Assembly: GCA_964654745.1 (NCBI GenBank)
Contig: CAZZKA010000001.1
Coordinates: 1 to 52,536, forward strand
DNA from: an uncultured Bordetella sp.
GTDB lineage: Bacteria; Pseudomonadota; Gammaproteobacteria; Burkholderiales; Burkholderiaceae_E
Reading direction: 5' to 3'
DNA length: 52,536 nucleotides
The translations under genes were made by a program, and so were the position numbers. The notes below the pieces were generated by a model. That model had not been told where the DNA came from. It did no database searches and was given only the letters and a program-made list of their open reading frames with translations. This document shows positions 12,701 to 47,426 of this stretch, in pieces. The stretch's first letter is position 1; each line of letters begins with the position of its first letter.

Positions 12701-15680
12701 ACAGCCCATCGATACCGACCTCCAGTTGTTGCCGGGTGGTCGAGCCGATAGCCACCTGCCTGCTGTCGATGCGGAGACTGCCGGCAAGCGAGCCCCAGGA
12801 CCCGAGTTGCAACGTCGCATTGGCGATCGATACCGAGCTCACCGGCCGCTCATCGGCAAATGCCATCGCAACCGTGCTGCCATCGGCGAGGGTCAGGGTT
12901 TCATTGACGCTTGCGCCCAGGCGATTGATTTCGACGCGCGCTCGCTGCGCTGACAAGGAAAACTGATTACCCGCCGTGCTGAGCGCGGCCCCGCCCTCAG
13001 CGACGAGCGCGAACCCTGCCTGACCCACCGCATCGGTACGGAGGATGAGGCCAAGCCTCGCATCGGTCACTCTGACCTGGGCACCGGACGATCCGATCAA
13101 CGCGTTGAGCCCGGTCCCGGCGATGATCAGGCGGTCACCGGCAGGGGTGGTTTGGCGGCTGATGCTGAGGTTGCCGCTGATCTCGCCGAAGCCCGCCACC
13201 GCGAGGGTGGCACCCGCCAAGCTGACCGAATAGGTCCCGGCGGCCCCGTCGAAGACGACCCGGCCCGCTGTAGCGGTAAGGGTCAGGCCCGCCACGCCAC
13301 CGATTTCGATCTGGCCGCTCAGCTCGCCGCTGCGGCGGCGCTCGGCATCGATGCGCAGTTGCCCACTTGCCTGGTTGAGACGCACGAAGGCCGGGCCTGC
13401 AGCAAGCAGCCACTGGGCATTGGCGATGCTCAGCTGCCAGGCGTTGGCGAGCCGCTCATAGGCGATCGTGAACTGGCCCGAGAGGCGGTTGTCGCCCAAC
13501 ACGAGCGCGCCCTGAACAGGCAGGCTGAGGACATCGCCCACCTGATCGAGCACAAACTGGCGGCCGGAAGCGAGCGTAAAGCGGCGCGCCTCAGCCCAAT
13601 CGATGGTCACGCCCTGAAGGTTCTGCGCCACCGTAATCGCGCGGTTGATCGACCACTGGGCGGATTCGAGATTGTCGAGGGCATAGCCAGCAACCACCAT
13701 GGCCTTGGCCGCGCCGCGGCTCGAAAGCCAGCTGTTGCCGTCCTTATCCCGGGCATACACCAGAGCGAATTCGGCCTCGGTGGCGGAAACTGCGCCTGAA
13801 CTGGAAGCGCCAGGAATGAGCGCGACCAGACCGCGCGATCCCGAAAGCGCGTACTCGGTGAGTTGGATCGTCTGCCCGTTGGAGAGCAGGCGCACCCGCT
13901 TTTGCGCATCGAGCGCGAGATCACCCTCAAGCCGGCCCAGGCCCTGCACCTGAATCGCAAAACGGCCGCTCATCTGCAGCGCGTTGGCCGGCAGGTCGAC
14001 CAGCAGGTCGCCACCACCGGGGAGCTTGAGCGAGCGCAGCAGCGCCTGATCGTGTTCGTTGTAGCTCAGCCTCACCCGCTGCCCGGTCAGCTGAACCGCA
14101 CTGTCCAGGGCGACCGACACATCGAGCAGACCCTGAACCGCGGTCCGACTGGTGGCCTCGCCCAGCCCCGTAGTCGGACTTGAGGTGCGGAAAACGACGC
14201 CCAGCGCGCCATTCTGTCCCGCGAGGGTCAGCAGGCCGAGGCTGAGTTCGGCTGCGGTCAGTTGGACACCGACCAGCAGCTCCTGGGTGGTGACGCCCTC
14301 CGCGGCCTCGGTCTGGCTCGCAAAGGTCACGCCCCCTTTTACCCAGCCCAGGCTGCCCAGCTGTAACGTCGCGTCACTCGCCTCGAACCGTCCGCCCGGA
14401 CTGTCGCTCGAGGCGAGATAGGACACCGATCCCTGCATCGAGACGCCGGCGCCTGCCTGCAGCGTCGCAGCGCCGCTCACCTGCAGGCTGAAGCGCGCGG
14501 GCGCCGAGGAAATCGACAGCGCGCCGTCGGAGAGGAGCAGCGCCGCACCCCGGGCCGGGTCGCCGGCGCGCATCTGCAGACCCTGCGCCGACACAGAGAG
14601 GACGCCCTGCGCCTGATCGTAGCCGAGCGTGAAATTGCCGGCGATCGACGGCCCGCTTCCGGCCGAAAGCGAGCCCTGCCCGGTCAGGCTCGCCTGCAGG
14701 GTCCCCGGACCCATCACCAGTTTGCCGGCGAGATTGGTCAGCGCTCCGTTCAAACCCGGCAGAGACCACTGCGCATTGACGCTCTGGGCAGTCAGCGTGG
14801 TCTCGACCTGGTTACCGGCCAGCAGGCCGACGGCGACCTGCCAGGTACCGGATAGCCTCAGGCCCGATATGTCGAGCGAAGCATCGAGCGATACAGCTGC
14901 CTGCGAAACCTGGTTGGCAACTTGGGTGAGCCATTGGTCCAGGGCCTGCTGCGCTTGTGGTATGGAAGCAACATTTAGCTGTTGTAAACCTGGCAATTGC
15001 GTTGCAACCAGCCGCAGACGGTTTGCCTCGTAGAGCGGCTTGAGAAAAATTCCGTTGCCCGCATAGAGCCCGGTGTAGCTCGTGAAAACGCCCTGACGCG
15101 ACGACCAGGTCATCACATCAAACACCTGGCCGGCGGTCGGTCTGAAATCGTTTATGAAATCGAGCGACAGGGTCCCAGCCAGCTTGGCCTCGCCCGATAC
15201 AGCGACTCGATCGTAGCCATCGAGTACCTGCGGCTGGCCTGCGCCGGGTGTGAGGCCGCCGATTTCGATCTTGAGTTTGCCGCTGGCCTGTTGCTCGAAA
15301 GACTGGACCGTCAGGATCCCTGGCGACTCACCCGGTGCGACCACTCCGCCGTTATTGAGCGGACCATCCCACACACCCGTGCCGAGCAGCGTGTAGCCCT
15401 GATTTAACGCAAGCGACTGGCCTTGCTCAGAGGGAGAATTGAGGTTGAGGAGCGATCCGGAGGGCGATTGCAACTGCAGCGGGTCGCCGGTTGCGGCGCC
15501 GGGCCACTGGGTCTGCGACGCGCTCGAACTGTCATCGGCGAGCACCTGCAAGGGCGCCGATTCGGCCGCTCGCACCTCGGGCTGATCGGAGCCGCTGACA
15601 GGCAAATCCGCCGCCAGCAGGATCCGCTGCTCAAGGACTTCCACCCGAACCGCAGGCAAAGCTTTTTTGCGTTTGGCCAA
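1..15680 (-). CDS. Giant repetitive secreted/surface protein, LEPR-XLL-like N-terminus, C-terminally truncated by the window edge (>=5,226 codons)
   Basis: I scanned every 60-nt line in the minus frame whose codon first bases fall at coordinates = 2 mod 3. No in-frame stop (plus-strand CTA/TCA/TTA) occurs from 15686 down to 1. The first upstream in-frame stop is TGA at 15689-15687. The proposed start is TTG at 15680-15678, with AAGGGGG (reverse complement of 15691-15697) 10 nt upstream. Hand translation is coherent at both ends: N-terminus MAKRKKALPAVRVEVLEQRILLAADLPVSGSDQPEV, window edge ...LVGRGKVTVAFDSSSSAGVTSQGYSIRFAQGVTVSSVTATA. The ORF track omits it because it has no stop inside the window. 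No track ORF inside the gene body is in this frame. Confidence 0.9.
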   Translation of the reverse strand, partial: MAKRKKALPAVRVEVLEQRILLAADLPVSGSDQPEVRAAESAPLQVLADDSSSASQTQWPGAATGDPLQLQSPSGSLLNLNSPSEQGQSLALNQGYTLLGTGVWDGPLNNGGVVAPGESPGILTVQSFEQQASGKLKIEIGGLTPGAGQPQVLDGYDRVAVSGEAKLAGTLSLDFINDFRPTAGQVFDVMTWSSRQGVFTSYTGLYAGNGIFLKPLYEANRLRLVATQLPGLQQLNVASIPQAQQALDQWLTQVANQVSQAAVSLDASLDISGLRLSGTWQVAVGLLAGNQVETTLTAQSVNAQWSLPGLNGALTNLAGKLVMGPGTLQASLTGQGSLSAGSGPSIAGNFTLGYDQAQGVLSVSAQGLQMRAGDPARGAALLLSDGALSISSAPARFSLQVSGAATLQAGAGVSMQGSVSYLASSDSPGGRFEASDATLQLGSLGWVKGGVTFASQTEAAEGVTTQELLVGVQLTAAELSLGLLTLAGQNGALGVVFRTSSPTTGLGEATSRTAVQGLLDVSVALDSAVQLTGQRVRLSYNEHDQALLRSLKLPGGGDLLVDLPANALQMSGRFAIQVQGLGRLEGDLALDAQKRVRLLSNGQTIQLTEYALSGSRGLVALIPGASSSGAVSATEAEFALVYARDKDGNSWLSSRGAAKAMVVAGYALDNLESAQWSINRAITVAQNLQGVTIDWAEARRFTLASGRQFVLDQVGDVLSLPVQGALVLGDNRLSGQFTIAYERLANAWQLSIANAQWLLAAGPAFVRLNQASGQLRIDAERRRSGELSGQIEIGGVAGLTLTATAGRVVFDGAAGTYSVSLAGATLAVAGFGEISGNLSISRQTTPAGDRLIIAGTGLNALIGSSGAQVRVTDARLGLILRTDAVGQAGFALVAEGGAALSTAGNQFSLSAQRARVEINRLGASVNETLTLADGSTVAMAFADERPVSSVSIANATLQLGSWGSLAGSLRIDSRQVAIGSTTRQQLEVGIDGLSGSLSLGGPAVSLSGGSGALLLFSETVSNQPVLRYAIQAEGEAALTGVAGLSLSAQRLQVGINRSGAAVERSIATPGGWVLMDQIDNETRVRGYAAVGIGDWLSAEGDIFLESRRNQTLTLSDGSTATADLLLLGGAGLSASVRAGASLALGNVNLAMALSTETTGAQRRWLSTSATVGSAEVTGVARASIDIGMLDINRQLASDGALYAGGDEKVINWRPGANSAGLPLVISDTAALVLDTQVSRLATAVQGTLAIGGAQISGTFHVVAGSVVENGQTVPAWQVLATNASVSLQANGARASIENVTGDLRISSSGVTGTLSGDGSVTGINGVSASGSLSASFANDRLKLAGAMELGIAGVGQLAGSFSVIREPAIQSVPVFESLSSTVGAGATVGTSRAGGEITTAVVRLNVSDQTGKFTREGLYTISWGGQSQTFSTLDADTAAGRPVTDEVLAARIQAAFERLAVVGAGNVQVKGTRTGGFDAEFIGSLAGQPIALASAGDQPGLWLIQPPDPADKNDWGVIEETAAMQIARSEVQQLVLNRASGAGGSFTLSLAGSVTAPIVVDGSDSAVNERQVLTITAANRASGQFWLSLDGRTTSKVRFSADPTYHTAQLQQALEAVVGAGNVSVSYQKGYTGHNSVDYVIDFRGARAGLDVSALQGFSSSSDIKLALKTVRQGSPGFSVIKQARAIETALQTALGTGNVSVAYDPASTLSSSRFQISFAGTLAAQNLPALQVGAASAGLSPSVSTSRDGSAAIGAVQTVRLYDERVVGTFELSLWMQGKTHTTGPLSFSASAQQVKSALLAARAPDGQSLAQRGVELAVDLLTQSDGAKVWRVAFGGSASDLDLDVMLGRITSAVAAPEAGLAVFRQASTSSETQTLSLPVPAGRFRLAFDGLNQTTDILDAATLTAQSLRDALAGLPAISSGDNLAVAATGTAGQYTVAYQGGLAARDVPSLVVLPVQTLSLAMTGGLRPTAVSVQLADRSDVSAELSIAGLGDEAIAQTLKLLIGSLPDLSADHVSVQARAGQPLTFDVSFVNGLAGAPMPQLKATVSRVAQVSAERLLIGANGVTAQVGSGGVGAAVQNGELALLVTKRADGTDGYALQVSGNAALSGFSGSVTLSAAAQLRVNALGEAVNLSIPTGLTTSSTLAFADGLARKELVITNGRIDVTGLGHVQGDLKLVTTNRISNGVVTTDVSIGFENAGGTLSLGGAQASLTGAAGALMLRHQVDAAGAITRRVALQADGNVALTAPGLNLNAALRVSYSRWGEALAATVATPSSDYAVSMLDGETRLNGQATVTLADTLELSGALSIESRLAQTVTLTNGSQIQTKQLVVSGAGVGAVLRSGASQIASLGGIDIAAIVSTEDVTSNARRWITGSTALSSASVMGYTLSDLQSAQMHINRAYDAAGALISAANHATDAARSVINWATNPQTISLSATKSLVLAQSLPRFEIPVSGSIDIGGALISGDFKITLDQSGADKVWTVDAAGASVGFRSGGAYVGIEGASGTLVLGPGNTRSGSISGTAVVEGLAGVSASGNFSASFSGTGLTLSGSSMAINVAGFGSLSGNLTASKSAGGQILIGATGVSASFGAGGAGVTVSNANLGLYIAGTSETGAGYALVADGSASLNGFSGVSLTATASVRINTLGQTVNAQIGGVSISFADRSRIQEVSISSGSLSVTGLGTVSGALAITSSASVVNGQTVNDMRIGLSGVSGSLSLGALTAQLSSGAGAILLKKIGSAASTHAVQLEGNVSLAGSGVSLTASQMRVAYNRLGSAVRGLAVNTGAGSYTVDLLDNETRVSGVATASVAGLTVSGEVFVEARNAVSQALQGGGTVSLNQTVLGGTGLSLVYASGSSTLAQLGGVDLALVFSQNAADAGQRWLTALGNLGSINVLGNALADLRTAQLRLNQAMDAAGNFIEDNSRAALDWSGAQARTIALSAIDSGKQALINMADRRWEIPVSGALDFGPTRLSGDFKIVLDKDAASGQRIWDIQAQNVSVGVSASGASVALSNGSGSFYLNGANRTGTMTGTASVSGLAGLSFSGTLSASFSANNLRLSGNNVSVAVDGFGSLSGSFSVEKDSSSDPRLLVGLGNVQADFGGVTISGGSLGLYIARNALGESGYALVANGTAGVSGLADLSLSATAAVRVNTLGEAVSRSITVGGASLAIEFASGNAVKELLISDGTVSISALGGQLRGAMGIRSETVTTGGITTSTLRIGLSGVSGQLTPGGVGATLSGASGAILIEKITPSGGTASSRYALQVGGNLALSGISGVTLDAQELSIAYNRLGRALENEVVATGSGDYAMNLLDNETRVRGRMNVEVAGALSVSGDMFIESRSDANAATVTLTDGNSVSVNQLIFGGAGISGSLGNSTVGASLRDLDIAVVLSTERGAGTRRWISAQALLGAATVQGYALADIRSARLLLNTELVNGALELSGTRSVIDWNGPADSASTAIAISPDQSLSFAQGQRTFKLDVDGAMAFGPASMSGQFNIELDQSAQGDRAWHIRATNVSVGLQANGARVGLSNGTGDLWLGKNDASGAYGAAQRSGVITGTASVTGVSDLTLTGTFATRFDSQGNLELAGAADIAIAGFASINGQFAVTQNALQTAQPASQTATQTAGVTASITETQQGGVRSSSSFRLAVAEGSGSSLRVREGSYSLAYGSASAQVRLLAADQDAVWLQKLQAAAQSLFGFGNAVVTGTKEGGFAITLAGTLSGQAIQGLSVTLPADPSQRSDWGSNYLIAQATTASGAVHALDLMPAGTEGTITYGFDFQARSDTRLRLGAYDSASGRFREGVYAFSFAGTTVSVGSLSASGSALTDTVLRERLGSAFEQLFGAGNVLVSGSRSAGFELRFTGSWAGQSVAVDSAAGGTGLFMRAPTDPAAAVAASDRSEVIQQAQSGSIPSAYTLRIQVPAGGATTNSDSFALSFANSPKSASVKFVNLQDSQGRHLIDALMALTGSTATYSTRLLTANVAGQPQKVYQSSDITVRQIRSPSYDQAYEISFTGTMAERVRALGQLSATNTGVTAGMQYALTGASGSTAAATGAVHTLSRWPADIAGTFTLSLQVGGQTFRTAAISMQASASALQSALLAATATAGASLGSTGVTATVTVNAQGLWQIAFGGSALGQSIAAISREVNAQTAPAATLTVLSSGLTGAAGQYTTAPISFATLNDTTSGGAALVSALLAAKTADGRAFSATGATASASFDVAANQWRVTLGGAAVGQQFAPLQGTVTPRQAPAASLTQTATGSTTSEVQRLQVSAAGAFQLGFNGRFTTVLQSEGLTAAALRSALEALSTIGSGNVAVELAGGGWDIRFQGALAGRNVAPLAVQAVRTIDLRFSDTGELASAIRIRPAGGSDWVHTIDVRAAASAQAWQAELKTALESLPGVGRNNIALQEVAGTPGTFRLVATGALTGKALPAVELQLLKAVAEPDNYLLIGASGVNVAVGTASAGVVINQAELGLVISRNTPPQVGVVAAKPGFALYASGQASLSGFSGQVSLQADAVVQINTLGRAVSQSVKTGLTSPNRTVAFSDGIERKEITILQGSIDVAGAVQVSGQLKLVSTTQTKTVNGQASTVTDIRIGVDQANGSLSAGSASITLSGGTGAVVLRHTTTGSGATATVTKQYAAVAEGNVAVAGVPGLDVKADSLLIAVNRWGSALVDEVATARGTYRLDLVDNETRARGRMSVDLAGVVQASGDLFIESRTDQAVLLSDGSSARVNQLLVGGANLAARFGNSTVGAALQQTQLGVVIATELVSTGQTARRWLATRAQVGSAELAAGVRADITGASLEINRQFGSTGLLAPGGVVIDWNGADDRQSTTLTLAPGRSLVLADGAQVFKLAIKGSLWFGPAELGGEFDLVLNEEAQGQSWTISARNAYASVAAGTARVSLSSGNGQILIAADGTKSGSVSGVAAVTGVDGLTLEGTLATRFDGSGNFQLAGAVQLGIAGFANLSGEFAVTKQTPVRIVPPEVISRAQTQAEGVVSELQAGGVMTSTVYRLTASRTASDGSLAFREGAYVFSYGGRSETIRSTGLNDAAFAAELTRGLNVLLGAGAVSVGGTRAAGFSITLVGSAYNGRLVTGLGMTPPADPSYKDEWGSISVTSLGTAAAVSRHYLLLTPQASTVTGAKLRLQLAMPDGTRTTADIRYIADKNRQTVAIQEALEALVGRGKVTVAFDSSSAGVTSQGYSIRFAQGVTVSSVTATA
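740..2333 (-). repeat. Super-repeat module M5 (~531 aa)
   Basis: Begins DNYLLIGASGVNVAVG. Core is TYRLDLVDNETRARGRMSVDLAGVVQASGDLFIESRTDQAVLLSDGSSARVNQLLVGGAN (DNETR at 1581-1595). Also contains ARRWLAT, IDW, GEFDLVLN. Ends GIAGFANLSGEFAVT. Confidence 0.85.
2334..4841 (-). repeat. Array B of about seven ~100-aa GNV-signature units
   Basis: Codon-checked unit at about 2640-2880: TSEVQRLQVSAAGAFQLGFNGRFTTVLQSEGLTAAALRSALEALSTIGSGNVAVELAGGGWDIRFQGALAGRNVAPLAVQ. Other units end GAGNVLVSGSRSAGFELRFTGSWAGQSVAV, LWQIAFGGSALGQSIAAI, QWRVTLGGAAVGQQFAPL, GTFRLVATGALTGKALPAV. Confidence 0.8.
4842..6410 (-). repeat. Super-repeat module M4 (~523 aa)
   Basis: Begins DPRLLVGLGNVQADFGG. Core is AYNRLGRALENEVVATGSGDYAMNLLDNETRVRGRMNVEVAGALSVSGDMFIESRS (DNETR at 5715-5729). 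Also contains TRRWISA, IDW, GQFNIELD. Ends AGFASINGQFAVT. Confidence 0.85.
6411..7950 (-). repeat. Super-repeat module M3 (~513 aa)
   Basis: Begins GGQILIGATGVSASFG. Codon-checked core is NTGAGSYTVDLLDNETRVSGVATASVAGLTVSGEVFVEAR (DNETR at 7269-7283). Also contains GQRWLTA, LDW, GDFKIVLD. Ends DGFGSLSGSFSV. Confidence 0.85.
7951..9510 (-). repeat. Super-repeat module M2 (~520 aa)
   Basis: Begins ERLLIGANGVTAQVGSGG. Core is DYAVSMLDGETRLNGQATVTLADTLELSGALSIESRLAQTVTLTNGS (DGETR at 8808-8822). Also contains ARRWITG, INW, GDFKITLD. Ends VAGFGSLSGNLTAS. Confidence 0.8.
9511..11589 (-). repeat. Array A of about six ~100-aa GNV-signature units
   Basis: Codon-checked example at 10741-10980: NERQVLTITAANRASGQFWLSLDGRTTSKVRFSADPTYHTAQLQQALEAVVGAGNVSVSY...VIDFRGARAGLDVSAL. 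Other units end GNVQVKGTRTGGFDAEFIGSLAGQPIAL, GTGNVSVAYD...FQISFAGTLAAQNLPAL, YTVAYQGGLAARDVPSL, FDVSFVNGLAGAPMPQL. Confidence 0.75.
11590..13140 (-). repeat. Super-repeat module M1 (~517 aa)
   Basis: Begins GDRLIIAGTGLNALIGSSGAQVRV. Core is WVLMDQIDNETRVRGYAAVGIGDWLSAEGDIFLESRRNQTLTLSDGS (DNETR at 12432-12446). Also contains QRRWLS and INW. Ends GIAGVGQLAGSFSV. Confidence 0.8.
13141..14290 (-). repeat. Degenerate, shortened copy (M0) of the ~520-aa super-repeat
   Basis: It keeps the C-terminal-half landmarks: GYALDNLESAQWSINR, IDW, LSGQFTIAY...W, AVAGFGEISGNLSISR. It lacks a clean DNETR/FIESR core. Confidence 0.5.
14291..15680 (-). other. N-terminal head region of the giant protein (leader plus SPGILTV-type segment)
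   Basis: Translated segment: LEQRILLAAD ... GTGVWDGPLNNGGVVAPGESPGILTVQSFEQQASGKLKIEIGGLTPGAGQPQVLDGYDRVAVSGEAKLAGTLSLDFINDFRPTAGQVFDVMTWSS. The PGxSPGxLTV ... G.L.IE.GG ... D.v.V.G.a.LaGtL pattern is common in heads or tails of very large beta-solenoid surface proteins. Confidence 0.6.
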
Positions 15681-16104
15681 AACCTGTCAGCCCCCTTGAA
15701 GCTCCGCTGCGACCGGTCGTTGCGATCGACATTCGCCCAGATACGAGATGCCTGGAACCAGTGCAGCCAGCCCGTTCGATCTGCCTCAGAGCCCGGCGTT
15801 GCTCCGTCTTGCGCGGATTTGACGCCAGTAAACAAACCAGTGTAGCCAAGTCAAGCCGCAAACGGGTGATCGATTTTGGTGGCGTTACGTATCGATTCGG
15901 AAAACGTCATCCCGTCTGCACCCCCAAGGGCCGGCCAGCGGGTTGAGAACAGAGCCTTCGGAGGGGGGCAGCCTCTGGGTTCGGCCCGGAGCGATCGGAA
16001 GATCGATCCAGAACGTATTGCCTAGGTCGTTTGATGGATCAAAGCCTGCCGCTCCGCTGCGCTGGCTCAAGCTCCATACCGCCGACGCGCGCGACAATCG
16101 AACG
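15681..16104. promoter_or_regulatory. Divergent intergenic/promoter region between the giant gene and the P-type ATPase
   Basis: About 420 nt with no convincing coding frame. It contains ATCGAT hexamers at 15869, 15891 and 16002, and an exact 11-mer GCTCCGCTGCG at 15701-15711 and 16051-16061. Confidence 0.5.
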
Positions 16105-18711: not shown

Positions 18712-18819
18712 GTCGGTTTTGCAGATGGCACCCCGGCGCTCAACACGGCCCGCTTAACAGCGCGCCCGCCGTGGGATAGAGTCCAAGCTCCTGATCGCGC
18801 CATCTCATCGGAGTTTCCA

Positions 18820-19779
18820 ATGCTGCGCGCATTCTTCATCTTTGCCGCGAGCCTCGCTATCGGCTCGGCGGCCACCGCTCAGAACTACCCGAACAAGCCG
18901 GTGCGAATCGTCGTTCCGGCCTCGGCCGGAGGCACGGTCGACCTGCTCACTCGCGCAGTGGCGCTGAAACTCACCGATCTGCTCGGTCAGCCGACCGTGA
19001 TCGAAAACCGGGCCGGCGCCACGACCAGCATCGCCGAGGAATATGTCGTCCGCCAACCTGCCGACGGCTACACCCTCATGATGTCGGGTATCACGCTTGC
19101 CACGCAGCCCTTCATGCGGGCCAACCTGCCCTACGATCCGCAGCGCGATTTGGCGATGATCTCGCTCGTTGCAGTCTCAGGTAACGTGATCGTCGTCAAT
19201 CCCAATCTGGCGGCGACAACGGTGCAGGAACTTGTAGCGCTTGCACGCAGCAGCCCGCGTCCCCTCCTCTACGGGACCGCCGCCTTCGGTGCGACGGGGC
19301 ACCTTGCCGCGGAGATGTTCAACCTGATGGCGGGTACTCGCCTCTCGCAGGTCCCATACAAGGGCGCAGCCCCGGCGCTCAACGATCTGATCGCCGGTCA
19401 GATCGATATGACTTTCGACAATATTCCGGCCGCCATCCAGCACATCCGGTCTGGCCGCGTTCGCGCCATCGCGGTCACCTCCGCCAAGCGAGACCGTCAA
19501 CTGCCAGATGTCCCGACGATCGCTGAATCCGGGATCACCGGCTACGAAATCGTCGCCTGGTTTGGTCTGGTCGCACCTGCGGGTACGCCACAGGCCATCA
19601 TCAACCGGCTGCACGCCGAAACGGTCCGAGCCCTGAAGGATCCGGGCGTTCTCGACCGGCTTGAAAAACTCGGCTTCGAAGCGGTCGGCAACAATCCGGG
19701 TGAGTTCGCAGCCTTCGTCAAGGCGCAGGCAGATACGCTCGGCCAGGTCATACGCAGCGCCGGCATCAAGCCGCAGTGA
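18820..19779 (+). CDS. Bug/TctC-family (tripartite tricarboxylate transporter) periplasmic substrate-binding protein
   Basis: Signal peptide then NYPNKPVRIVVPASAGGTVDLLTR...LGQPTVIENRAGA...PADGYTLMM...VPYKGAAPALNDLIAGQIDM...LPDVPTIAESG...WFGLVAPAGTP. These are the hallmark Bug motifs. Confidence 0.92.
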   Translation: MLRAFFIFAASLAIGSAATAQNYPNKPVRIVVPASAGGTVDLLTRAVALKLTDLLGQPTVIENRAGATTSIAEEYVVRQPADGYTLMMSGITLATQPFMRANLPYDPQRDLAMISLVAVSGNVIVVNPNLAATTVQELVALARSSPRPLLYGTAAFGATGHLAAEMFNLMAGTRLSQVPYKGAAPALNDLIAGQIDMTFDNIPAAIQHIRSGRVRAIAVTSAKRDRQLPDVPTIAESGITGYEIVAWFGLVAPAGTPQAIINRLHAETVRALKDPGVLDRLEKLGFEAVGNNPGEFAAFVKAQADTLGQVIRSAGIKPQ

Positions 19780-20627
19780 GCTTACCTGCAGTGGCTGGGG
19801 CCGGGCTCGACCGTAGCCCGTTACCGCAGACTACGCGGCTTGCCGATGCGCCGCAGCCGCAAAAGCCTGTCCTGGTACTCGACCAGGTGAGCGTGCGCTT
19901 TGGCGGCATCAAAGCGCTTGATGCTCTGAGCCTCTCGGTCGCGCCCGGGGAGATATGCGCGCTGATAGGCCCCAACGGGGCTGGCAAAACAACAATCTTC
20001 AACGCGGTGAGCGGGCTCTGCGCGATCGAGTCCGGCGAGATCCGATTCGCCGAGCAGACGCTGACACACTGGGCGCCACATCAAGCTGCGCGGCTCGGCA
20101 TCGCGAGGACTTTTCAAAATCTTGCGCTGTTTGAATCGCAGACGGTGCTGTTCAACGTGCTGTCCGGAATGCATGCAGTCATGCGTTGCGGCTTGCTCGC
20201 CCACGCGCTAAAGCGGCGCCTTGCCGCACGGGAAGAGGCTGCCGCTCTGGATCGCGCCTGGGCGTTGATCGAATCGCTGGGCCTAGAGGCGCTTGCCAGG
20301 CGCCAGGTCAGTGAGCTATCGCTCGGCCTGCGCAAGCGCACGGAACTCGCGAGGGCGCTCGCCTCAGAGCCCCGACTGCTCATGCTCGATGAACCTGCTG
20401 CCGGCCTCACCCTGGCCGAACAGGACGATCTTGCAACGCTGCTTGTGCGCTTGCGCAGGGACCGAGACCTCACCATCCTGCTGGTCGAGCACAAGATGCG
20501 CTGGATGCAGACTGTCTGTGAGCGAGCGGTCGCGCTCGATTTTGGCCGAACGATCGCCGACGGAACGCCCGCTGCGGTGAGCGCGCATCCGAACGTCGTT
20601 GCTGCATGGTTGGGACGGCGCGCTTGA
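19776..20627 (+). CDS. ABC transporter ATP-binding protein, LivG-like (HAAT family)
   Basis: Walker A GPNGAGKTT, signature LSLGLRKR, Walker B LLMLDEPAAGL, C-terminal ...AAWLG. The GTG start overlaps the upstream Bug stop (GTGA at 19776-19779). An alternative GTG lies at 19791. Confidence 0.88.
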   Translation: MSLPAVAGAGLDRSPLPQTTRLADAPQPQKPVLVLDQVSVRFGGIKALDALSLSVAPGEICALIGPNGAGKTTIFNAVSGLCAIESGEIRFAEQTLTHWAPHQAARLGIARTFQNLALFESQTVLFNVLSGMHAVMRCGLLAHALKRRLAAREEAAALDRAWALIESLGLEALARRQVSELSLGLRKRTELARALASEPRLLMLDEPAAGLTLAEQDDLATLLVRLRRDRDLTILLVEHKMRWMQTVCERAVALDFGRTIADGTPAAVSAHPNVVAAWLGRRA

Positions 20628-21397
20628 AGAACGATTTTGTTTTGCAAGGCGCTCGCGCGCCGGCGGCCAGGGCCGGGCCTGAGCCACCTGCAGCGCTTGT
20701 CGATGTGCGGGGGTTGCGGGCCGGCTACGGCGGGGCCGATGTGCTGCGCGATGTGACCTTCACCCTTTCCCGGTCAGGCACTGCGGCCGTGCTCGGTGCA
20801 AACGGCGCAGGCAAAACCACGCTGCTGCGTGCGCTCTGCGGAATGATCGCTGCGAATGGGTCGGTGACCCTCGACGGCGAGCCGCTGATCGGGCTCACCA
20901 CCGAGCAGATTGCTGCGCGCGGCGTCGCACATGTTCCGGAGGGTCGGGGAACATTTGCCCAACTCACGGTCGAGGAGAACCTGCGTCTGGGCGCATGGCT
21001 GTTGCCCAATCGCCGGGCGGCACTTGCCGAGCGCGAGCGTTTGCTAGAGTACTTTCCTCGGCTGCGGGAGCGGTTCGCCCAGCAGGCCGGAACCTTGTCG
21101 GGTGGCGAGCAGCAGATGCTCGCCATCGCGCGCGCGCTGCAGTCGCGCCCGAGGCTGTTACTTCTGGATGAACCCTCTTTCGGCCTCGCCCCCGCGATGG
21201 TGTCCGAGGTGTTTGAGCTACTGGCAAAACTCCGGGCCGAATACGGGCTCGCCATGCTGCTCGTTGAGCAGCACGTCTCGCTCGCACTCGAGCTGGCCGA
21301 TCGCCTCTTTATCCTGGAGGACGCACGTCTTGAACCCGTTCAGCAAGACGCCTCGGCGCTCGAACCCGCCCTGCGAGGCGCCTACCTGGGCCGCTGA
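20606..21397 (+). CDS. ABC transporter ATP-binding protein, LivF-like (HAAT family)
   Basis: GANGAGKTTLLRALCG, LSGGEQQMLAIARAL, LLLLDEPSFGLAP, C-terminal RGAYLGR. It overlaps the upstream gene by 22 nt. Confidence 0.88.
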   Translation: MVGTARLKNDFVLQGARAPAARAGPEPPAALVDVRGLRAGYGGADVLRDVTFTLSRSGTAAVLGANGAGKTTLLRALCGMIAANGSVTLDGEPLIGLTTEQIAARGVAHVPEGRGTFAQLTVEENLRLGAWLLPNRRAALAERERLLEYFPRLRERFAQQAGTLSGGEQQMLAIARALQSRPRLLLLDEPSFGLAPAMVSEVFELLAKLRAEYGLAMLLVEQHVSLALELADRLFILEDARLEPVQQDASALEPALRGAYLGR

Positions 21398-21408
21398 CGC
21401 GTATCGGT

Positions 21409-22281
21409 ATGGAAATCTTTCTCCATCAGTGCGCAGCCGGCCTCGTGGCCGGTGCCATCTACGCGAGCCTTGCTGTCGCGCTGGTGATGATCTGGCGCAG
21501 CACCCACCACCTCAACTTCGCGCAAGGCGAGATGGCGATGTTCTCGACCTACGTCGCGCTTGCCCTGATCGAGGCCGGTCTCGGGTACTGGAGTGCCTTC
21601 GCATTGACGGTCGCACTGTCGGCCCTCGCTGCCATGGCACTTCAGGTCATCGTGGTGGCGCCCGCGGCGCGGGCCTCGCCGCTCGCCTCAGTGACGGTCT
21701 TTATCGCGCTGCTGTGCGTTTTCCACAGCGTCGCATCCTGGTGGTTCTCGCCGGTGCTGCGCGAGTTTCCGAGCCCGTTCGCACGCGCGGGCATGCTGAG
21801 CTCGCCCTATCTGTCAGCCCACGCCGTCGGCACCGTCGCGGTCGTGCTTGTCGAACTGCTCGCGGTCTGGTTTTTTTTCCGTTTCACCCGGACGGGTCTC
21901 GCGATGCGCGCGGTCGCACACAATCCGCAGTCCAGCCGTCTCCTCGGTATTCCGGTCGGGCGGATGCTGGCCCTAGGCTGGGGGTTGGCCGCCGCACTCG
22001 GTGCGGTGGCGGGAATGATGGTGGCTCCAACGGTCTATCTGGATCCGAACATGATGGGAGGCGTTCTGCTCTATGGCTTTGCTGCTGCCCTGTTGGGGGG
22101 CATAGACAGCCCGTGGGGAGCGGCGGCCGGCGGCCTGATCGTCGGCCTGCTCGACTCGCTGGTGGGATCCTGGCTGATCGGTCCCGACCTGAAATTAAGC
22201 TTTGCGCTCGCGCTGATCGTAGCGGTACTGCTGCTTCGACCCGCAGGGCTGTTTGGCAATCCCACGAGCACGCGCGTGTGA
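21409..22281 (+). CDS. Branched-chain amino acid-type ABC permease, LivH-like
   Basis: Polytopic membrane protein with the LNFAQGEMAMFSTY motif typical of LivH. Confidence 0.85.
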   Translation: MEIFLHQCAAGLVAGAIYASLAVALVMIWRSTHHLNFAQGEMAMFSTYVALALIEAGLGYWSAFALTVALSALAAMALQVIVVAPAARASPLASVTVFIALLCVFHSVASWWFSPVLREFPSPFARAGMLSSPYLSAHAVGTVAVVLVELLAVWFFFRFTRTGLAMRAVAHNPQSSRLLGIPVGRMLALGWGLAAALGAVAGMMVAPTVYLDPNMMGGVLLYGFAAALLGGIDSPWGAAAGGLIVGLLDSLVGSWLIGPDLKLSFALALIVAVLLLRPAGLFGNPTSTRV

Positions 22282-22294
22282 GCAGGTTCGAGCG

Positions 22295-23251
22295 ATGACA
22301 GGGCTCGCCGGTGCCTCAGCGCCGCCCCGATCGCCCCTAGGCCTCATCCTGATCGCTGCGATCGGCTGTGCGCTAGCTCCGCTGCTCACCGACTATCGCC
22401 TGTTCCAGGCAACACAGGTGATGATCTTAGCCATCGCGCTGCTGGGTCTGAACCTCGTCACCGGTTGGTGCGGCCAGATTTCGCTGGGGCACGGCGCATT
22501 CTTTGGGCTCGGCTCGTATTGCAGCGCGATCCTCATGCTCCGATTCGGTTTGGCCGACTGGATGACCTTACCCATAGCGGCGTTTTTTTGCTTCGCTTCA
22601 GGCTGGCTGTTTGGACATCCGGCAGCGCGCCTTCAGGGGCTTCATCTCGCGCTCGCGAGCTTTGCACTGGCCGCCGCCCTGCCGCAATTATTGAAGCATC
22701 GATTCGCAGAACCCCTCACAGGCGGCACTGGCGGGCTGGCTCTGGAAGCCGCGCAAGCTCCAGCATGGTGGCCTGCGTCACCCGCGCTATGGCTCTACGC
22801 TCAGACGCTTGCCGTGCTGATCATCATGATCGCCCTTAGTGCACGCATTCTCGCCAGCCGACATGGCCGCGCGATGATTGCCGTCCGGGATCACGCGCTC
22901 GCAGCAGGCACGCTCGGGATCGACGCTGCGCGCACCAAGGTCACCGCCTTTGCGCTGAGCGCGATGTATGCCGGAATCGCCGGCGCGCTGAGCACATCGC
23001 TGGTACGGTTCGTGAGTCCCGACAGCTTCGACGTGTTCCTGTCGATTACGTTTCTGGTCGGCATCGTGATCGGCGGGCTGGCCTCCGTTTCCGGTAGCCT
23101 GATCGGCGCGCTCTTCATCCAGATCGTACCGCTCGCAGCCGAGCAGGTTTCCCGTGAGGTTTCCTGGGCGATCTACGGCGCCGTGCTGCTTCTATGCCTC
23201 TGGCTGATGCCGGGAGGGATCGTCGCGTTCTGGCGCAAACTCAGGCGATAG
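22295..23251 (+). CDS. Branched-chain amino acid-type ABC permease, LivM-like
   Basis: GQISLGHGAFFGLGSY motif and multiple TM segments. I prefer the ATG at 22295 over the track start at 22253. Confidence 0.85.
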   Translation: MTGLAGASAPPRSPLGLILIAAIGCALAPLLTDYRLFQATQVMILAIALLGLNLVTGWCGQISLGHGAFFGLGSYCSAILMLRFGLADWMTLPIAAFFCFASGWLFGHPAARLQGLHLALASFALAAALPQLLKHRFAEPLTGGTGGLALEAAQAPAWWPASPALWLYAQTLAVLIIMIALSARILASRHGRAMIAVRDHALAAGTLGIDAARTKVTAFALSAMYAGIAGALSTSLVRFVSPDSFDVFLSITFLVGIVIGGLASVSGSLIGALFIQIVPLAAEQVSREVSWAIYGAVLLLCLWLMPGGIVAFWRKLRR

Positions 23252-23267: not shown

Positions 23268-24275
23268 TCACTTGTCGAGCGTGATGCCGCCCTTGCGGAT
23301 GATCTCAGACCACTTCGCGATGTCGGCGGCCATGATGCGGCTCATTTCTTCGGGCGAGGGATCCTGCGGCTGGGCGCCAAGATCGATCAAACGCGTTCGA
23401 ACCGCCGGGTCGCGCAGAGCCACAGCAACATCAGCGTTCAGCCGATCGATGAATGGCCTCGCCATGCCGCGCGGCGCGATCAGCGCAAACCAGGCCGCCG
23501 ACTCGTAGGCGCCCAATCCGGCTTCGGCCGCGGTCGGAACATCGGGAAGCGCCGCGAGCCGGGTCTTCGAGGCGACGACGAGCGGCCTGACCTTGCCGCC
23601 TTGAATTGAACTCAACACATTAGGCAGGAGTTGAAAGCTCACCGGCACCCGTCCTGAAACCAGATCAGTGACAAGATTGCCGGTCACGCGGTACGGGACA
23701 TGCGTCATCCGGGCGCCGACCAGCTGCTCGAAAAACGCTCCGGCAAGGTGTTGGGAACTCCCGTTGCCGACCGAGCCGTAGCCGACATCCGGTGTCTTGC
23801 GGACGTAATCGATAAGCTGTGGCAGGCTTTCTATCGGCAGGGTCGTGCTGACAACAACGACATTGGGCAGTACCGCAAATACACCGATGGGCTGCAGATC
23901 CTTCTCGGGGTCGTAGCCGAGATCGGCGTTGAGGATCTTGTTCACCGCCAGCGGACCCGATGTGCTCATGCCGATGGTCAGGCCGTCCGGCTCGGCGCGG
24001 GCCACCGACTGCGTGCCGACGTTGCCGCCTGCAGCGGGGCGATTGAGGTAGACAAAGCTTCGGCCACTGTTGCCCGCTACCTTGTCGAGCAGCAGCCTGG
24101 TCACGACATCGCTCGCGCTGCCCGCGGAAAAAGGCACGATGACGCTGATCGGCTTACCGCCTCCAGCAGTCGACTGCGCACGGGCCGCGCCAGTCATCGC
24201 AATCGCCGCCACGGCGAGCACCGTACCCGCTGCAAGGGCAACTGAACGGCGAATCTCGGGCCTCGGGAATCGCAT
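23268..24275 (-). CDS. Bug/TctC-family substrate-binding protein
   Basis: MRFPRPEIRRSVALAAGTVLAVAAIAMTGAARAQ then KPISVIVPFSAGSASD...PDGLTIGM...HVPYRVTGNLVTDLVSGRVP...PDVPTAAEAG...WFALIAPRG. The ATG at 24275 has AGGAGA 6 nt upstream. The track ORF extension to 24365 is rejected. Confidence 0.9.
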   Translation of the reverse strand: MRFPRPEIRRSVALAAGTVLAVAAIAMTGAARAQSTAGGGKPISVIVPFSAGSASDVVTRLLLDKVAGNSGRSFVYLNRPAAGGNVGTQSVARAEPDGLTIGMSTSGPLAVNKILNADLGYDPEKDLQPIGVFAVLPNVVVVSTTLPIESLPQLIDYVRKTPDVGYGSVGNGSSQHLAGAFFEQLVGARMTHVPYRVTGNLVTDLVSGRVPVSFQLLPNVLSSIQGGKVRPLVVASKTRLAALPDVPTAAEAGLGAYESAAWFALIAPRGMARPFIDRLNADVAVALRDPAVRTRLIDLGAQPQDPSPEEMSRIMAADIAKWSEIIRKGGITLDK

Positions 24276-24377: not shown

Positions 24378-25673
24378 CTAGCCGATCCGTCCCGTGACCG
24401 ACCCGAACCGCTCGATCATCACGTCTTCGAGCGGCTTGCCATCGGAGGTGTGGGCGCCACCGCCGCGGACCCGATAGGCATCGGGCAGTCCGGGAGCGAC
24501 GGGTGCCTCGCCGGCCGCCAGCGCCCGCGCCTGCCCCAGCATCAGCCTGCGAAAGTGGACGATCGCCACATCGGTTGCAGTCAGGTGCTCGCGGCTGCGA
24601 TCGACCACCACGCCCTGGCTCTCCTGCGCCATCTGGTCCTGCTCGGCGATCCCGCGTACCCCGGTAAAGGACACATTGCGCTGTTCGTCTCGCGACAGCA
24701 GGTAGTCGTTGGACCGGTTACGCACCGGGACATAGCCCGGTCCCAGTTCGGCAAACTGCCCATACCCGCCCTGCGCATAGCGCGCCCGCTCCGCTTCGTC
24801 CAGGGGCCGATCCGGGTGCCAGGCATAGGTGTAGACCCAACATCGCGTATCGTCGATCGGCGTCCAGGTATACCCGTACAGAGTCTCGCCGGGCATCGCC
24901 GAAGGCGTAATCGAATGGGTCGGCAGCATGAACTGCGTCAGGCGCCAGTAGTGTTCGCCGGGATCCGCAGTACGAGCTCCGCCGATCAGAAAGCCGACGT
25001 CGTGGTCGATGATTTTGAAGCGTGGCATCGGGTCGTTGCGCAACCAGCGCAGCCTCGCAAGGTCCGCCGCGACAGCGGGATTGTCGTCGCGCAGCCGCGC
25101 GGGCGCGGGCATGTGGAGAAATGAGAAGTGCGCCGTGTCGAGAGCGCCCTCCATAGAATGCGTCCAGTTGCATTCGACCAGACGCTTGGTGACGAAGCGG
25201 TGCGCGGGCGGGACCAGACCAGCCTCAAGCTGCGGGACCCGTTCGGGCTGAGCGGACTGCGGCCCCAGATAGGCCCACACCATGCCGGCGAACTCGTTCG
25301 TCGGGTAAGCCTTAATCCGCATCCGGCCGTGATACGCCGCACCCGGTGGAACATTGGGCATGTCGACACAAGCCCCCGTGCGGTCGAACTTCCAGCCGTG
25401 GTAAATGCAGCGCAGGCCACCCTCTTCGTTGCGCCCGAAAAAAAGATCCGCGCCACGGTGGGCGCAGGCCCGCTCGAGGAGTCCGGTGCGGCCGGCCGAA
25501 TCGCGGAACAGCACCAGATCCTCGCCCATCACCCGGATACGCAACGGCGCACAGTCGGGATCGGGCAACTCATCGGAGAGCGCCACGGGATGCCAATAGC
25601 GCCGAAGATATTCACCCATCATCGTGCCGGCATCACTCGCCACGAGCAGTACGTTGTCCTGCGCTGACAGCAT
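24378..25673 (-). CDS. Rieske [2Fe-2S] non-heme iron oxygenase, alpha subunit (phthalate/vanillate-type family)
   Basis: Rieske ligands CAHRGADLFFGRNEEGGLRCIYHGWKF, N-terminal YLRRYWHPVALSDELP. The ATG at 25673 is preceded by GGGGAG. Confidence 0.88.
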   Translation of the reverse strand: MLSAQDNVLLVASDAGTMMGEYLRRYWHPVALSDELPDPDCAPLRIRVMGEDLVLFRDSAGRTGLLERACAHRGADLFFGRNEEGGLRCIYHGWKFDRTGACVDMPNVPPGAAYHGRMRIKAYPTNEFAGMVWAYLGPQSAQPERVPQLEAGLVPPAHRFVTKRLVECNWTHSMEGALDTAHFSFLHMPAPARLRDDNPAVAADLARLRWLRNDPMPRFKIIDHDVGFLIGGARTADPGEHYWRLTQFMLPTHSITPSAMPGETLYGYTWTPIDDTRCWVYTYAWHPDRPLDEAERARYAQGGYGQFAELGPGYVPVRNRSNDYLLSRDEQRNVSFTGVRGIAEQDQMAQESQGVVVDRSREHLTATDVAIVHFRRLMLGQARALAAGEAPVAPGLPDAYRVRGGGAHTSDGKPLEDVMIERFGSVTGRIG

Positions 25674-25916
25674 TGCAGTCTCCCCACGGCAGCGCGCCAC
25701 CCGGGGGCTCGGCCCTCGGTGGCACGCCGGTATTGCGTCGTTTCTCGATGACGGGATTCTAGATTACGGCGTCGGGCGCCTGCCCCTCAGCCATCCCTCG
25801 CACGGACCGCGCCGGCACGCATCCCTACCCCGCCCGCCCGCCTTCATCGCGCGCAGGCCGCCTCTCTCGTATGATTGCAAGACGCACAGACAAATAACAG
25901 CCTCAGGAGACCCCTC

Positions 25917-26945
25917 ATGAAGCATCTGATTGCAGCGCTTGCCTTGGCCGCGTCCTGCGCGGCGGCGTCGGCGCAGGACGCCTGCGGCCACCGCGGCGAC
26001 CTCGACCCCCAGTACTGCGACGAAAATCGCGATCTGGTCGCCGATCCGCCCAAAGACCCCAAGCGCTTCAAGAATCCCAGCACGCTGGTCTTCACCTATA
26101 CGCCTGTCGAGGATCCCGCGGTATACGAGAAGATCTTCAAGCCTTTTACGGACTACCTCGCCCAGTGCACCGCCAAGAAGGTCGTTTTCTTTCAGGTCCA
26201 GTCCAACGCGGCGGAGATCGAGGCCATGCGTTCGGGTCGGCTCCATGTGGGAGGGTTCTCGACGGGTCCGACCGCCTTTGCGGTCAATATCGCGGGCGCC
26301 ATTCCGTTTGCGGTCAAGGGCTACGAAAAAGAATTTCAGGGCTACAACCTGATCGTCATAGTGCGCAAGGAAAGCGCATTCCAAAAGCTTGCCGACCTCA
26401 AGGGTAAAAAGCTCGCCCACACCTCGCCCTCGTCCAACTCCGGCCACATGGCGCCTATGGCGCTTTTCCCGCGAGAAGGGCTCGCCCCGGGCAAGGACTA
26501 CAACATCCTTTTTTCGGGTAAACACGACCAGTCGGTCCTGGGCGTTCGCTCGGGTGATTACGACGCAGCCGCGGTCGCCTCAGACGTCTTCCATCGCATG
26601 GCCACGCGCGGCCAGATCAAGGCCGACGACTTCCGCATTATTTATCAGAGCTCAAAATTCCCGACCTCGTCGTTTGCCTATGCGCACGATCTCGAACCGG
26701 CCCTGCGCGACCGGATGCTCAAGTGCTTCTACGACTACCGGTTCACCGATGAGATGAAAAAGGCCTTCGACGGCGCTGACCGGTTCTTCCCGGTCACCTA
26801 TCAGCGCGACTGGGCGGTGGTGCGCGAGGTCTCCGAAGCGGGCGGCGAAAAATTCAACGGCGCGGCCTACGAACGAGAGGCCAAGCGCGAGGAGGAGGCC
26901 CGTCGCAAGGCGGCCGAGGCCAAGTCCAAGGCGACGGGCAAATAA
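25917..26945 (+). CDS. phnD: PhnD-family (phosphate/phosphite/phosphonate-type) ABC substrate-binding protein with a charged C-terminal tail
   Basis: Signal peptide [20 protein letters not shown], then [29 protein letters not shown]...[24 protein letters not shown]. The ATG at 25917 has AGGAGA upstream. The tail reads [24 protein letters not shown]. Confidence 0.8.
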
Positions 26946-26974
26946 ACAAACAGTCGACTGAGGCTCCGCCAATC

Positions 26975-29332: not shown

Positions 29333-29342
29333 GACTTAAGCC

Positions 29343-40663: not shown

Positions 40664-40708
40664 CGCAAGATCAGCGCCAGCGCTCGCTCAAACTCCCGGA
40701 CCTGGGTT

Positions 40709-41416: not shown

Positions 41417-41423
41417 GGTTTCC

Positions 41424-42218: not shown

Positions 42219-42257
42219 GGCGGATCCGGTTGGAGATCAGGGTCGAATACTTCAGGC

Positions 42258-43184: not shown

Positions 43185-43185
43185 T

Positions 43186-44148: not shown

Positions 44149-44244
44149 GCGGCACTCCAGAAAGACATGCCGGCCCAGACGGCCGGCATGAGGCTTGTCA
44201 CAAACGGCCCGTCGCATCGCCAGCGTACGGGCCCCGAATACATC

Positions 44245-47360: not shown

Positions 47361-47426
47361 CCGCCGCCTTGAGTCCGAGGCGGCAGTCGAGCAAACTTCC
47401 GGTTTTTCGCTGACGGGAAAGTCCCC

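Follow-up and report, generated by a model that had tools for sequence, protein, structure and literature searches.

We found an intact ABC importer of the LivFGHM type that is encoded together with a receptor gene of a different transporter class. In the 52.5-kb stretch of DNA that we analysed (hereafter the window), which comes from a lineage of uncultured freshwater Burkholderiales, a gene for a TctC/Bug-family binding protein, bug1, directly precedes livG, livF, livH and livM (Table 1), and the cassette has no LivK gene in cis. The linkage is conserved in a clade of related loci, in which the Liv genes are intact and under purifying selection. The reading that we favour, tentatively and as an unproven model, is that the importer uses the TctC/Bug protein as its receptor across family boundaries.

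Table 1 Features of the bug1–livGFHM region of the window
Feature	Position	Strand	Length (aa)	Description	Domains and matches
Promoter candidate	18754..18782	+		Sigma-70-like, TTAACA-17-TAGAGT, within the 108 nt that separate bug1 from the P-type ATPase gene upstream
bug1	18820..19779	+	319	TctC/Bug-family periplasmic solute-binding protein	Pfam PF03401, 3e-69
livG	19791..20627	+	278	LivG-type ABC ATPase, from GTG 19791	ABC_tran, BCA_ABC_TP_C
livF	20606..21397	+	263	LivF-type ABC ATPase	ABC_tran
livH	21409..22281	+	290	LivH-type permease	BPD_transp_2 (PF02653), 1e-31
livM	22295..23251	+	318	LivM-type permease; ORF open from TTG 22253	BPD_transp_2 (PF02653), 3e-33
bug2	23268..24275	-	335	TctC-family binding protein	PF03401, 2e-54
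Oxygenase gene	24378..25673	-	431 (called gene)	Oxygenase of the Rieske/LigXa_C type; same strand as bug2 and upstream of it

The five-gene layout, its coordinates and its junctions had been proposed from the sequence, and all were confirmed when we re-checked the sequence and searched Pfam. The block runs from 18820 to 23251 with tight junctions throughout. The bug1 stop codon (TGA, 19777–19779) overlaps an in-frame GTG of livG at 19776, and the next in-frame livG start is the GTG chosen by gene callers. livG ends at 20627 and livF starts at 20606, a 22-nt overlap, and gaps of 11 nt and 13 nt separate livF from livH and livH from livM. An identical Bug1 protein with the same layout occurs on 10 independently assembled contigs, so the arrangement is not an assembly artefact. 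The bug1–livG junction itself, a 4-nt overlap or an 11-nt gap, is peculiar to the window organism: the spacer in relatives is 28–73 nt, and in one locus (L091) it is 837 nt long and holds an extra ORF. The N-terminal extension of the window LivG aligns with DNA that is intergenic in relatives. The livF product has 263 residues compared with 237 in relatives, and a later start is possible.

The only promoter-like site between 18500 and 24500 is the candidate upstream of bug1, which is weak evidence because shuffled sequence also yields one such site. Separate transcripts had been named as a finding that would speak against the original prediction; within the block there is no conspicuous promoter or terminator signal, and its junctions leave no room for a terminator. 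Given a shared strand, short or overlapping junctions, the lack of internal signals and a conserved gene order, bug1–livG–livF–livH–livM is a single predicted operon, with co-transcription inferred from these features.

Two BPD_transp_2 subunits with LivG-type and LivF-type ATPases place the cassette in the HAAT family (LivFGHM type, TC 3.A.1.4). It shares with LivJ/LivK–LivHMGF and the related Bra, Nat and Urt systems the pair of BPD_transp_2 permeases, a LivG subunit with BCA_ABC_TP_C and a LivF subunit, but the cognate Peripla_BP_6 receptor that is encoded with a HAAT system is missing in cis. Close relatives with LivK, L094 and L109 among them, have the same gene order, G-F-H-M, and in L109 livK stands at the 5′ end, where the window has the TctC-family gene. 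Read by eye, the livG product retains Walker A (GPNGAGKT), the Q-loop, Walker B (LLMLDEP) and the H-loop, and the livF motifs GANGAGKT, LSGGEQQ and LLLLDEP are likewise intact. LivG is the top NCBIfam match of the livG product and lies below its cutoff, as do the matches of the livF product to UrtE and LivF; no subunit reaches an NCBIfam equivalog cutoff for Liv or Urt, and no substrate is assignable on this basis.

LivJ/K-type receptors (Peripla_BP_6) and TctC proteins (PF03401) are different protein families and also belong to different structural classes. Read by eye, the Bug1 sequence opens with a signal peptide (MLRAFFIFAASLAIGSAATA/QN) and contains PASAGGTVD, the carboxylate-loop motif; its best solved relatives are AdpC (5oei), BugE (2dvz), Bug27 and TphC (1e-55 to 1e-68). 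Like the receptors of the TctCBA and BctCBA systems (TTT family, TC 2.A.80), Bug1 and Bug2 are full-length TctC-family proteins with a signal peptide and a carboxylate-loop motif, but the membrane proteins encoded next to them belong to an ATP-driven ABC system and not to a secondary transporter, and neither TctA (12-TM) nor TctB (4-TM) was found with them in the window. Bug1 fits the definition of an orphan Bug protein of Antoine et al. (2003), a TctC homologue without TTT membrane genes nearby (PMC5812351). The literature agrees with the earlier claim that bug genes outnumber tctAB and that most are left orphan; it regards the partners of these orphans as unknown and expressly allows that transporters of other classes may serve them (PMC5812351, PMC2864759).

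To search for the missing receptor, we built a custom LivK HMM from 44 LivK-type ORFs and ran it against the whole window and the clade loci. No LivK-type ORF was matched in any of this sequence, even at E<=10, and Pfam detected no Peripla_BP_6, TctA or TctB protein among most large ORFs between 15.9 and 52.5 kb. These searches bear out the prediction that no LivJK-like ORF lies beside the cassette; Pfam also verified the predicted neighbours, a P-type ATPase gene upstream of bug1 and a convergent second Bug gene downstream of livM. The flanks of the other clade loci, about 8 kb, hold no LivK-type gene, and in LivK-linked relatives a LivK-type ORF stands beside the cassette in about 17 of the 17 loci with both flanks visible. 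One clade contig (P0003) carries an unlinked Peripla_BP_6 gene 4.5 kb downstream of livM. This gene is not conserved: a 387-aa window ORF after the TRAP genes (34696–35859), which we had suspected of being its Peripla_BP_6 parallel, proved by Pfam to be a luciferase-like monooxygenase.

The original prediction also depended on synteny in related genomes, and within the clade it held. Wherever the contig reaches, LivM homologues of at least 61% identity have a Bug1 orthologue directly upstream on the same strand, with no LivK beside the cassette; these orthologues are 319 aa long and 84–88% identical. The five-gene block is kept across three flank contexts while the flanks have rearranged: a P-type ATPase flanking one end and Bug2 with the Rieske oxygenase the other; the ATPase again, here together with a methyltransferase and a TRAP transporter; and Bug2 together with MR_MLE and an HpcH aldolase. 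The bug2 stop codon is 16 nt from that of livM. Orthologues of bug2, at 77–84% identity, occur in every clade locus with a visible downstream flank except the P0003 contig, and Bug2 is a possible second receptor. The oxygenase is conserved at 80–82% identity in context-A loci and, as a context gene, hints at an aromatic-carboxylate substrate.

The clade LivM homologues are 61–72% identical and monophyletic by neighbour joining (bootstrap 82/100). LivH is 75–77% identical to clade members and 54–58% identical to LivK-linked relatives. A metagenome scan with LivM recovered only relatives of at most 54% identity; none belongs to the clade, and they served for comparison as the LivK-linked set. 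In the neighbour-joining tree the LivK-less group is nested among LivK-linked permeases, a topology showing that the clade cassette derives from LivK-linked ancestors. The sister lineage P0020 has neither LivK nor an upstream Bug1, which places LivK loss before Bug1 recruitment and shows that such a cassette can be maintained with no bug1 in its operon. It has no co-directional Bug gene; its cassette overlaps a convergent, non-orthologous TctC gene, bringing to three the distinct TctC paralogues that adjoin the receptor-less clade. Bug1 orthologues at 68–78% identity have no Liv neighbours and lie in unrelated contexts. The clade is narrow, with about three independent events.

TctC genes are frequent around the locus. 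Outside its giant gene, the window has 4 TctC genes among about 40 (about 10%), so adjacency in a single genome is by itself weakly significant. One of them, Bug4, immediately precedes a canonical HAAT cassette with its own LivK, and this adjacency is lineage-specific, being absent in Aquabacterium. The LivG2 start is ATG 51306. Among 164 other Bug genes, with the 1.02 Mb around them as background, none adjoins a HAAT permease.

The four Liv ORFs are full length in every clade member. For close pairs, dN/dS in the five genes ranged from 0.03 to 0.19 (bug1, 0.03–0.05; livG, 0.07–0.15; livF, 0.11–0.19; livH, 0.03–0.06) with similar dS in all, indicating that the cassette is functional and has co-diverged with its neighbours; the same likeness in dS rules out that horizontal transfer recently replaced the cassette. 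It is therefore highly improbable that the LivGFHM cassette has been decaying since LivK was lost. That reading draws on the faster divergence of the Liv genes from clade members (LivG, 51–55% identity; LivF, 51–61%) compared with Bug1, but the same order of subunit conservation is seen among LivK-linked relatives, dS equals that of the neighbours, and the dN/dS of livG and livF (0.07–0.19), together with their intact catalytic motifs, effectively refutes a pseudogene interpretation of these two fast-diverging subunits.

A meaningless adjacency, produced by chance or history in a Bug-saturated genome whose Bug genes come to lie beside many operons, and preserved by shared ancestry in a young clade, is also unlikely. 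The frequency of TctC genes in the window, the density of about one TctC ORF per 6 kb in sampled Bug-rich loci, the Bug4 arrangement next to a LivK-containing cassette and the confinement of synteny to Bug1 orthologues of at least 84% identity are all as expected from it. Against it, the block survives three flank contexts with saturated dS, the background Bug genes never abut a HAAT permease, co-directional spacing is tight in all members but one, and the coincidence with a LivK loss specific to the clade and its sister is left unexplained. The alternative that deserves most weight, and that we regard as a realistic possibility, is that the genes are co-located and co-regulated without forming one machine: LivHMGF would use a LivK encoded elsewhere, Bug1 would deliver its ligand to a shared TctAB, likewise encoded elsewhere, or signal to a sensor, as BctC does with BctE, and the operon would only keep both uptake routes of one pathway expressed together. 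HAAT systems with unlinked receptors exist, rhizobial BraC3 and the Nat system of cyanobacteria being examples. Burkholderiales commonly have orphan Peripla_BP_6 genes, and the P0003 contig carries an unlinked one. P0020 retains a LivK-less cassette without a co-directional Bug gene, and the nearest Bug1 orthologues beyond the clade are orphans without Liv genes. The permeases point the same way: the clade's LivH and LivM align collinearly with those of LivK-linked relatives, with no loop indels and few clade-specific substitutions, and this comparison revealed no remodelled periplasmic loops that would mark a receptor switch. Such collinearity despite different receptor families counts against cross-family use; we found no solved structure of a LivM homologue onto which the docking face could be mapped. 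TctAB sharing and signalling are, moreover, the standard explanations in the literature (PMC5812351, PMC5994714). Co-location nevertheless requires two partnerless transport systems to be held in a tight operon through flank rearrangement and at dS >1.4, and it requires a LivK-type gene that is absent from the window and from the flanks of the other clade loci, the sole nearby candidate, that on P0003, having a monooxygenase gene as its positional counterpart in the window.

According to the cross-family model that we prefer, the operon would encode a selectively maintained HAAT importer in a lineage that lost its LivJ/K-type receptor gene. Bug1, periplasmic and presumably co-transcribed, would capture a carboxylate, perhaps a sugar acid or an aromatic acid, and the convergent neighbour Bug2 may do likewise. 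The loaded receptor would then dock on the periplasmic face of LivH/LivM, and ATP hydrolysis by LivG/LivF would drive uptake. That this LivK-less clade of importers has its real substrate receptors in the TctC/Bug family, here Bug1 and perhaps also Bug2, is a proposal that we put forward with some reserve. The original prediction of cross-family receptor use thus stands for the conserved linkage, which synteny and selection both support, and not for function, in view of the narrow clade, P0020, Bug4, the P0003 gene and the collinear permeases.

It had also been suggested that cross-family receptor use has no described precedent. Our literature search likewise found no demonstrated case in which an ABC permease operates with a TctC protein, but linkage of the genes has been noted before. 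In Rhodoplanes sp. Z2-YC6860, 41 of 434 TTT receptor genes are linked to ABC transporter genes, which surprised the authors (PMC5994714), and a general linkage of TTT receptors with ABC transporters is, to that extent, not wholly unprecedented. The Rhodoplanes result is a count in one alphaproteobacterium; going by the accessible text, it comes with no word on the ABC family concerned, on loss of the ABC system's own receptor, on conservation of the linkage or on selection. The present locus lacks specifically the cognate receptor gene, and its linkage is shared by a clade of betaproteobacteria. Another parallel is TAXI–GltS of Bordetella pertussis, in which a binding-protein family has been recruited by a membrane partner outside its canonical family, a pairing also first recognised through conserved gene linkage (PMC12344293). 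TAXI–GltS differs in being experimentally characterised and in joining a TRAP-type receptor to a secondary carrier, not a TTT-type receptor to an ABC permease.

Since 2003 it has been asked which membrane proteins serve the orphan Bug/TctC proteins, of which Bordetella, Cupriavidus, Rhodoplanes and related bacteria have tens to hundreds, and reviews expressly allow for transporters of other classes (PMC5812351, PMC2864759, PMC5994714). The locus described here offers a concrete, testable candidate pair, an ABC importer minus its own receptor gene and with a Bug gene instead. If Bug1 does not dock on LivHM, the locus would be a clean example of an ABC cassette relying on an unlinked receptor. 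If it does, the rule of one binding-protein family for one transporter class would need revising, and many Burkholderiales ABC transporters annotated as "branched-chain amino acid" systems would receive a different substrate prediction. Bug1 would then be the first TTT-class binding protein to feed an ATP-driven ABC permease, and some orphan Bug proteins of Burkholderiales would work via ABC transporters, not TctAB.

The bug1 gene, encoding a 319-aa receptor of the TctC/Bug family, heads a plus-strand block of five genes in which it is followed by genes for LivG-type and LivF-type ATPases and, up to 23251, for two BPD_transp_2 permeases. The bug1 stop codon (TGA, 19777–19779) is overlapped by an in-frame GTG at 19776, and the next livG start, the one chosen by gene callers, is the GTG at 19791; the later junctions are a 22-nt overlap followed by gaps of 11 nt and 13 nt. 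Re-read on the sequence, these junctions match the original prediction exactly. The upstream neighbour of bug1 is a P-type ATPase gene, and the G+C content of the window is 62–67%. An identical Bug1 protein with the same gene arrangement was present on 10 independently assembled contigs, and the arrangement is therefore real. Lake samples, Erken among them, are the source of these contigs.

Coordinates of the features discussed (window positions unless a relative's locus is named)
Feature	Position	Strand	Remarks
Giant gene, 5' part	1-15686	-	5228 codons open in the window
bug1	18820-19779	+	TctC/Bug family (Pfam)
livG and livF	19791-21397	+	N-terminal extensions of ~25-30 aa, missing in relatives
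bug2	23268-24275	-	TctC; convergent to livM; downstream of Rieske/LigXa_C oxygenase gene
Phosphonate-type ABC system	25875-30209	+	Phosphonate-bd receptor, ATPase, two BPD_transp_1 permeases; then HAD-type hydrolase
Phosphate-regulon block	39314-44217	-	PhoR-like histidine kinase, PhoU, PstB-type ATPase, two Pst-type permeases
Second Bug/HAAT cluster	45357-52536, continued in L166:3067-14848	+	All on one strand
Bug3	48417-49394	+	Then SnoaL-like (SnoaL_4) gene
Bug4	50154-51185	+	Directly upstream of LivG2
LivG2	51306-52091	+	Then LivF2
Bug1 ortholog (75% identical) and 149-aa ORF directly after it	L019:7941-9396	+	
Extra 271-aa ORF between bug1 and livG	L091:4797-5612	+	Weak DUF5838 match
Convergent TctC gene and livM end, sister lineage P0020	P0020 contig (ERZ1426826) and L176:264-2181		35-nt overlap

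The giant gene's product, 18,574 aa long on a same-organism contig, carries an N-terminal 'VEVLEQRILLAAD' motif and has a high content of Ala, Gly, Ser and Leu; its first 1500 aa gave no Pfam match. A PBP_like_2 (PstS-type) gene adjoins the Pst-type permeases on a same-organism contig.

No receptor of its own type is encoded in cis for this HAAT importer. An HMM built from 44 LivK-type ORFs adjoining related cassettes had no match, even at E <= 10, across the full 52.5-kb window or at any locus of the clade (LivM relatives at least 61% identical, with bug1 upstream and no LivK), upholding the earlier claim that no LivK-type ORF lies on either side of the cassette. Most of the large ORFs from 15.9 to 52.5 kb were annotated with Pfam, and none of those annotated was a Peripla_BP_6, TctA or TctB; the remaining binding-protein genes of the window are parts of complete phosphonate-type ABC, TRAP and Pst phosphate systems. 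No subunit of the cassette reached an NCBIfam equivalog cutoff that would allow a substrate to be assigned.

We found that the five-gene block is conserved and operon-like in layout. When one genome per species was scanned with Bug1, livG directly followed bug1 in all six MAGs with Bug1 at 85–88% identity, and the full bug1-livGFHM-bug2-Rieske block was present in four of them; in the other two, which reach a contig end, only the Rieske gene was absent (L011) or only bug1 and part of livG were present (L013). The synteny did not extend to the eight MAGs with Bug1 at 68–78% identity, which had no adjoining Liv genes and unrelated contexts, and all other matches were at <=47%. It did hold throughout the closer LivM relatives: a LivM search returned 16 protein clusters at 61–72% identity, then a large group at <=56%, and every readable contig of the 61–72% group had a 319-aa TctC gene directly 5' of livG. 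MAGs of the clade include GCA_041442895.1, CAZORB01, JBMSQB01, VGHA01 and CAMBZS01. Three flanking contexts were seen in these relatives. In context A, the P-type ATPase lies upstream and bug2 and the Rieske gene downstream; in context B, the same ATPase is followed beyond the block by a hypothetical gene, a methyltransferase and a TRAP transporter, without bug2; in context C, a divergent Bug gene, MR_MLE and HpcH/HpaI aldolase lie upstream and bug2 downstream. Both borders were reshuffled while the block stayed together, at dS of 1.4–2. The tight bug1-livG junction is not conserved, the spacer being 28–73 nt in relatives, and the extra ORF at this position in L091 is missing from L165, a locus that is nearly identical in other respects.

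The phosphonate-type system is kept beside the Rieske gene in context A relatives. The 149-aa ORF of L019 aligns with the TctC profile over its C-terminal half alone, and could be either a fragment or a partial tandem duplicate. The record titles of several lake MAGs with Bug1 orthologs (L016, L018, L020 and others) read 'Bordetella parapertussis', 'Klebsiella pneumoniae' or 'Enterobacteriaceae'. In gene content and G+C these MAGs look like uncultured freshwater Burkholderiales; hence their taxonomy is probably mislabelled.

For comparison, we used metagenome loci recovered with the LivM query, plus the P0023 context, that had both flanks on the contig. A LivK-type gene adjoined the cassette in about 17 of 17 such loci, either following livM or preceding livG or livH; in L094 the LivK-type protein is encoded at 8987-10189, and in L109 the order is K-G-F-H-M, with K in the position that bug1 holds in the window. 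In a neighbour-joining tree of LivM, the Bug-linked proteins form one clade nested among LivK-linked ones (bootstrap 82/100), and the Bug-linked importer is derived from LivK-linked ancestors. In the sister lineage, P0020 (56% LivM identity), neither the 8 kb upstream of the cassette nor the 2.6 kb downstream contains a LivK gene, and no Bug gene lies upstream, so LivK loss preceded Bug1 recruitment. The TctC gene convergent with its livM encodes a protein only 32–36% identical to Bug1 and Bug2, and hence a different paralog; three different TctC paralogs therefore abut this receptor-less lineage, and TctC genes are always beside the receptor-less cassette. The region upstream of the P0020 cassette contains MR_MLE, a gene for a small cytochrome c, a lactonase-like SGL gene and a TRAP system.

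The block is also under purifying selection. Between close pairs of clade members, dN/dS was 0.03–0.05 for Bug1, 0.02–0.06 for Bug2, 0.07–0.15 for LivG, 0.11–0.19 for LivF, 0.03–0.06 for LivH and 0.07–0.12 for LivM, with similar dS across all six genes. Liv genes thus evolve faster than Bug genes, yet purifying selection on them is clear and they have diverged in step with their neighbours, which with the similar dS rules out recent replacement of the cassette. Identity of the window proteins to the clade is 51–55% for LivG, 51–61% for LivF, 75–77% for LivH and 84–88% for Bug1. Of the genes in the block, those for the two ATPases evolve fastest (window versus L011–L016, L091 and L165).

These data suggest, tentatively and at somewhat less than even probability, that LivHMGF takes Bug1, and perhaps Bug2, as its receptor. 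The main rival, which we regard as somewhat less probable, is that a LivK-type receptor encoded in trans serves LivHM, with Bug1 working with TctAB or in signalling and the adjacency reflecting co-regulation only. Clade LivH and LivM align with their LivK-linked relatives without insertions or deletions, and clade-specific differences are confined to a few positions (one case: a loop that is TGGVQG in seven and TGGSQG in two of nine outgroup sequences is TGG(T/S)(G/N/Q)G in the clade); a search for a solved structure for mapping a docking face on LivM found none. An unlinked Peripla_BP_6 gene lies 4.5 kb from livM in one clade member, but is not conserved. Decay of the cassette, a very improbable explanation, is countered by the intact Walker A, Walker B, Q-loop, signature and H-loop motifs of LivG and LivF and by purifying selection on these and the rest of the block, and is ruled out by that selection together with co-divergence.

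Chance or historical adjacency is unlikely. Bug genes are very dense here, with four in the ~37 kb of the window that the giant gene does not occupy, and the second cluster reads acyl-CoA synthetase, dehydrogenase, Bug3, SnoaL_4, Bug4, LivG2, LivF2, Peripla_BP_6, LivH2, LivM2 and DAO oxidase, its Peripla_BP_6-LivH2-LivM2 part being read directly after LivF2 on a same-organism contig. Thus, a canonical cassette with a receptor of its own can likewise have a Bug gene immediately 5' of livG. The LivG2-type cassette is widely conserved; the Bug4-LivG2 arrangement is retained in a close relative (L174), and the cassette lacks a Bug neighbour in Aquabacterium (L175). This adjacency is therefore lineage-specific, and probably incidental. 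Across 1.02 Mb around 164 other Bug genes, HAAT permeases occurred in only two loci and none adjoined a Bug gene. The bug1-livGFHM linkage is real and beyond chance within its clade.

Most Bug genes lack TTT membrane partners, according to reviews (PMC5812351, PMC2864759), and the TAXI-GltS case shows a binding-protein family recruited by a non-canonical membrane partner (PMC12344293). The original prediction knew of no precedent for a Bug receptor serving an ABC permease: our literature search likewise turned up no paper in which a TctC protein works with one, although 41 of 434 TTT receptor genes in Rhodoplanes have been noted as linked to ABC transporter genes, with no further analysis (PMC5994714). 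A Bug receptor feeding an ABC permease is a plausible candidate mechanism without demonstrated precedent. Sugar-acid or aromatic-acid substrates are hinted at by the flanking genes, which include MR_MLE, HpcH/HpaI aldolase and lactonase-like SGL in context C and the sister lineage, and the Rieske/LigXa-type oxygenase in context A; such substrates would be in keeping with a Bug protein that binds carboxylates. The general linkage of TTT receptors to ABC genes was already known; what is new here is a receptor-less HAAT clade headed by a conserved Bug gene.
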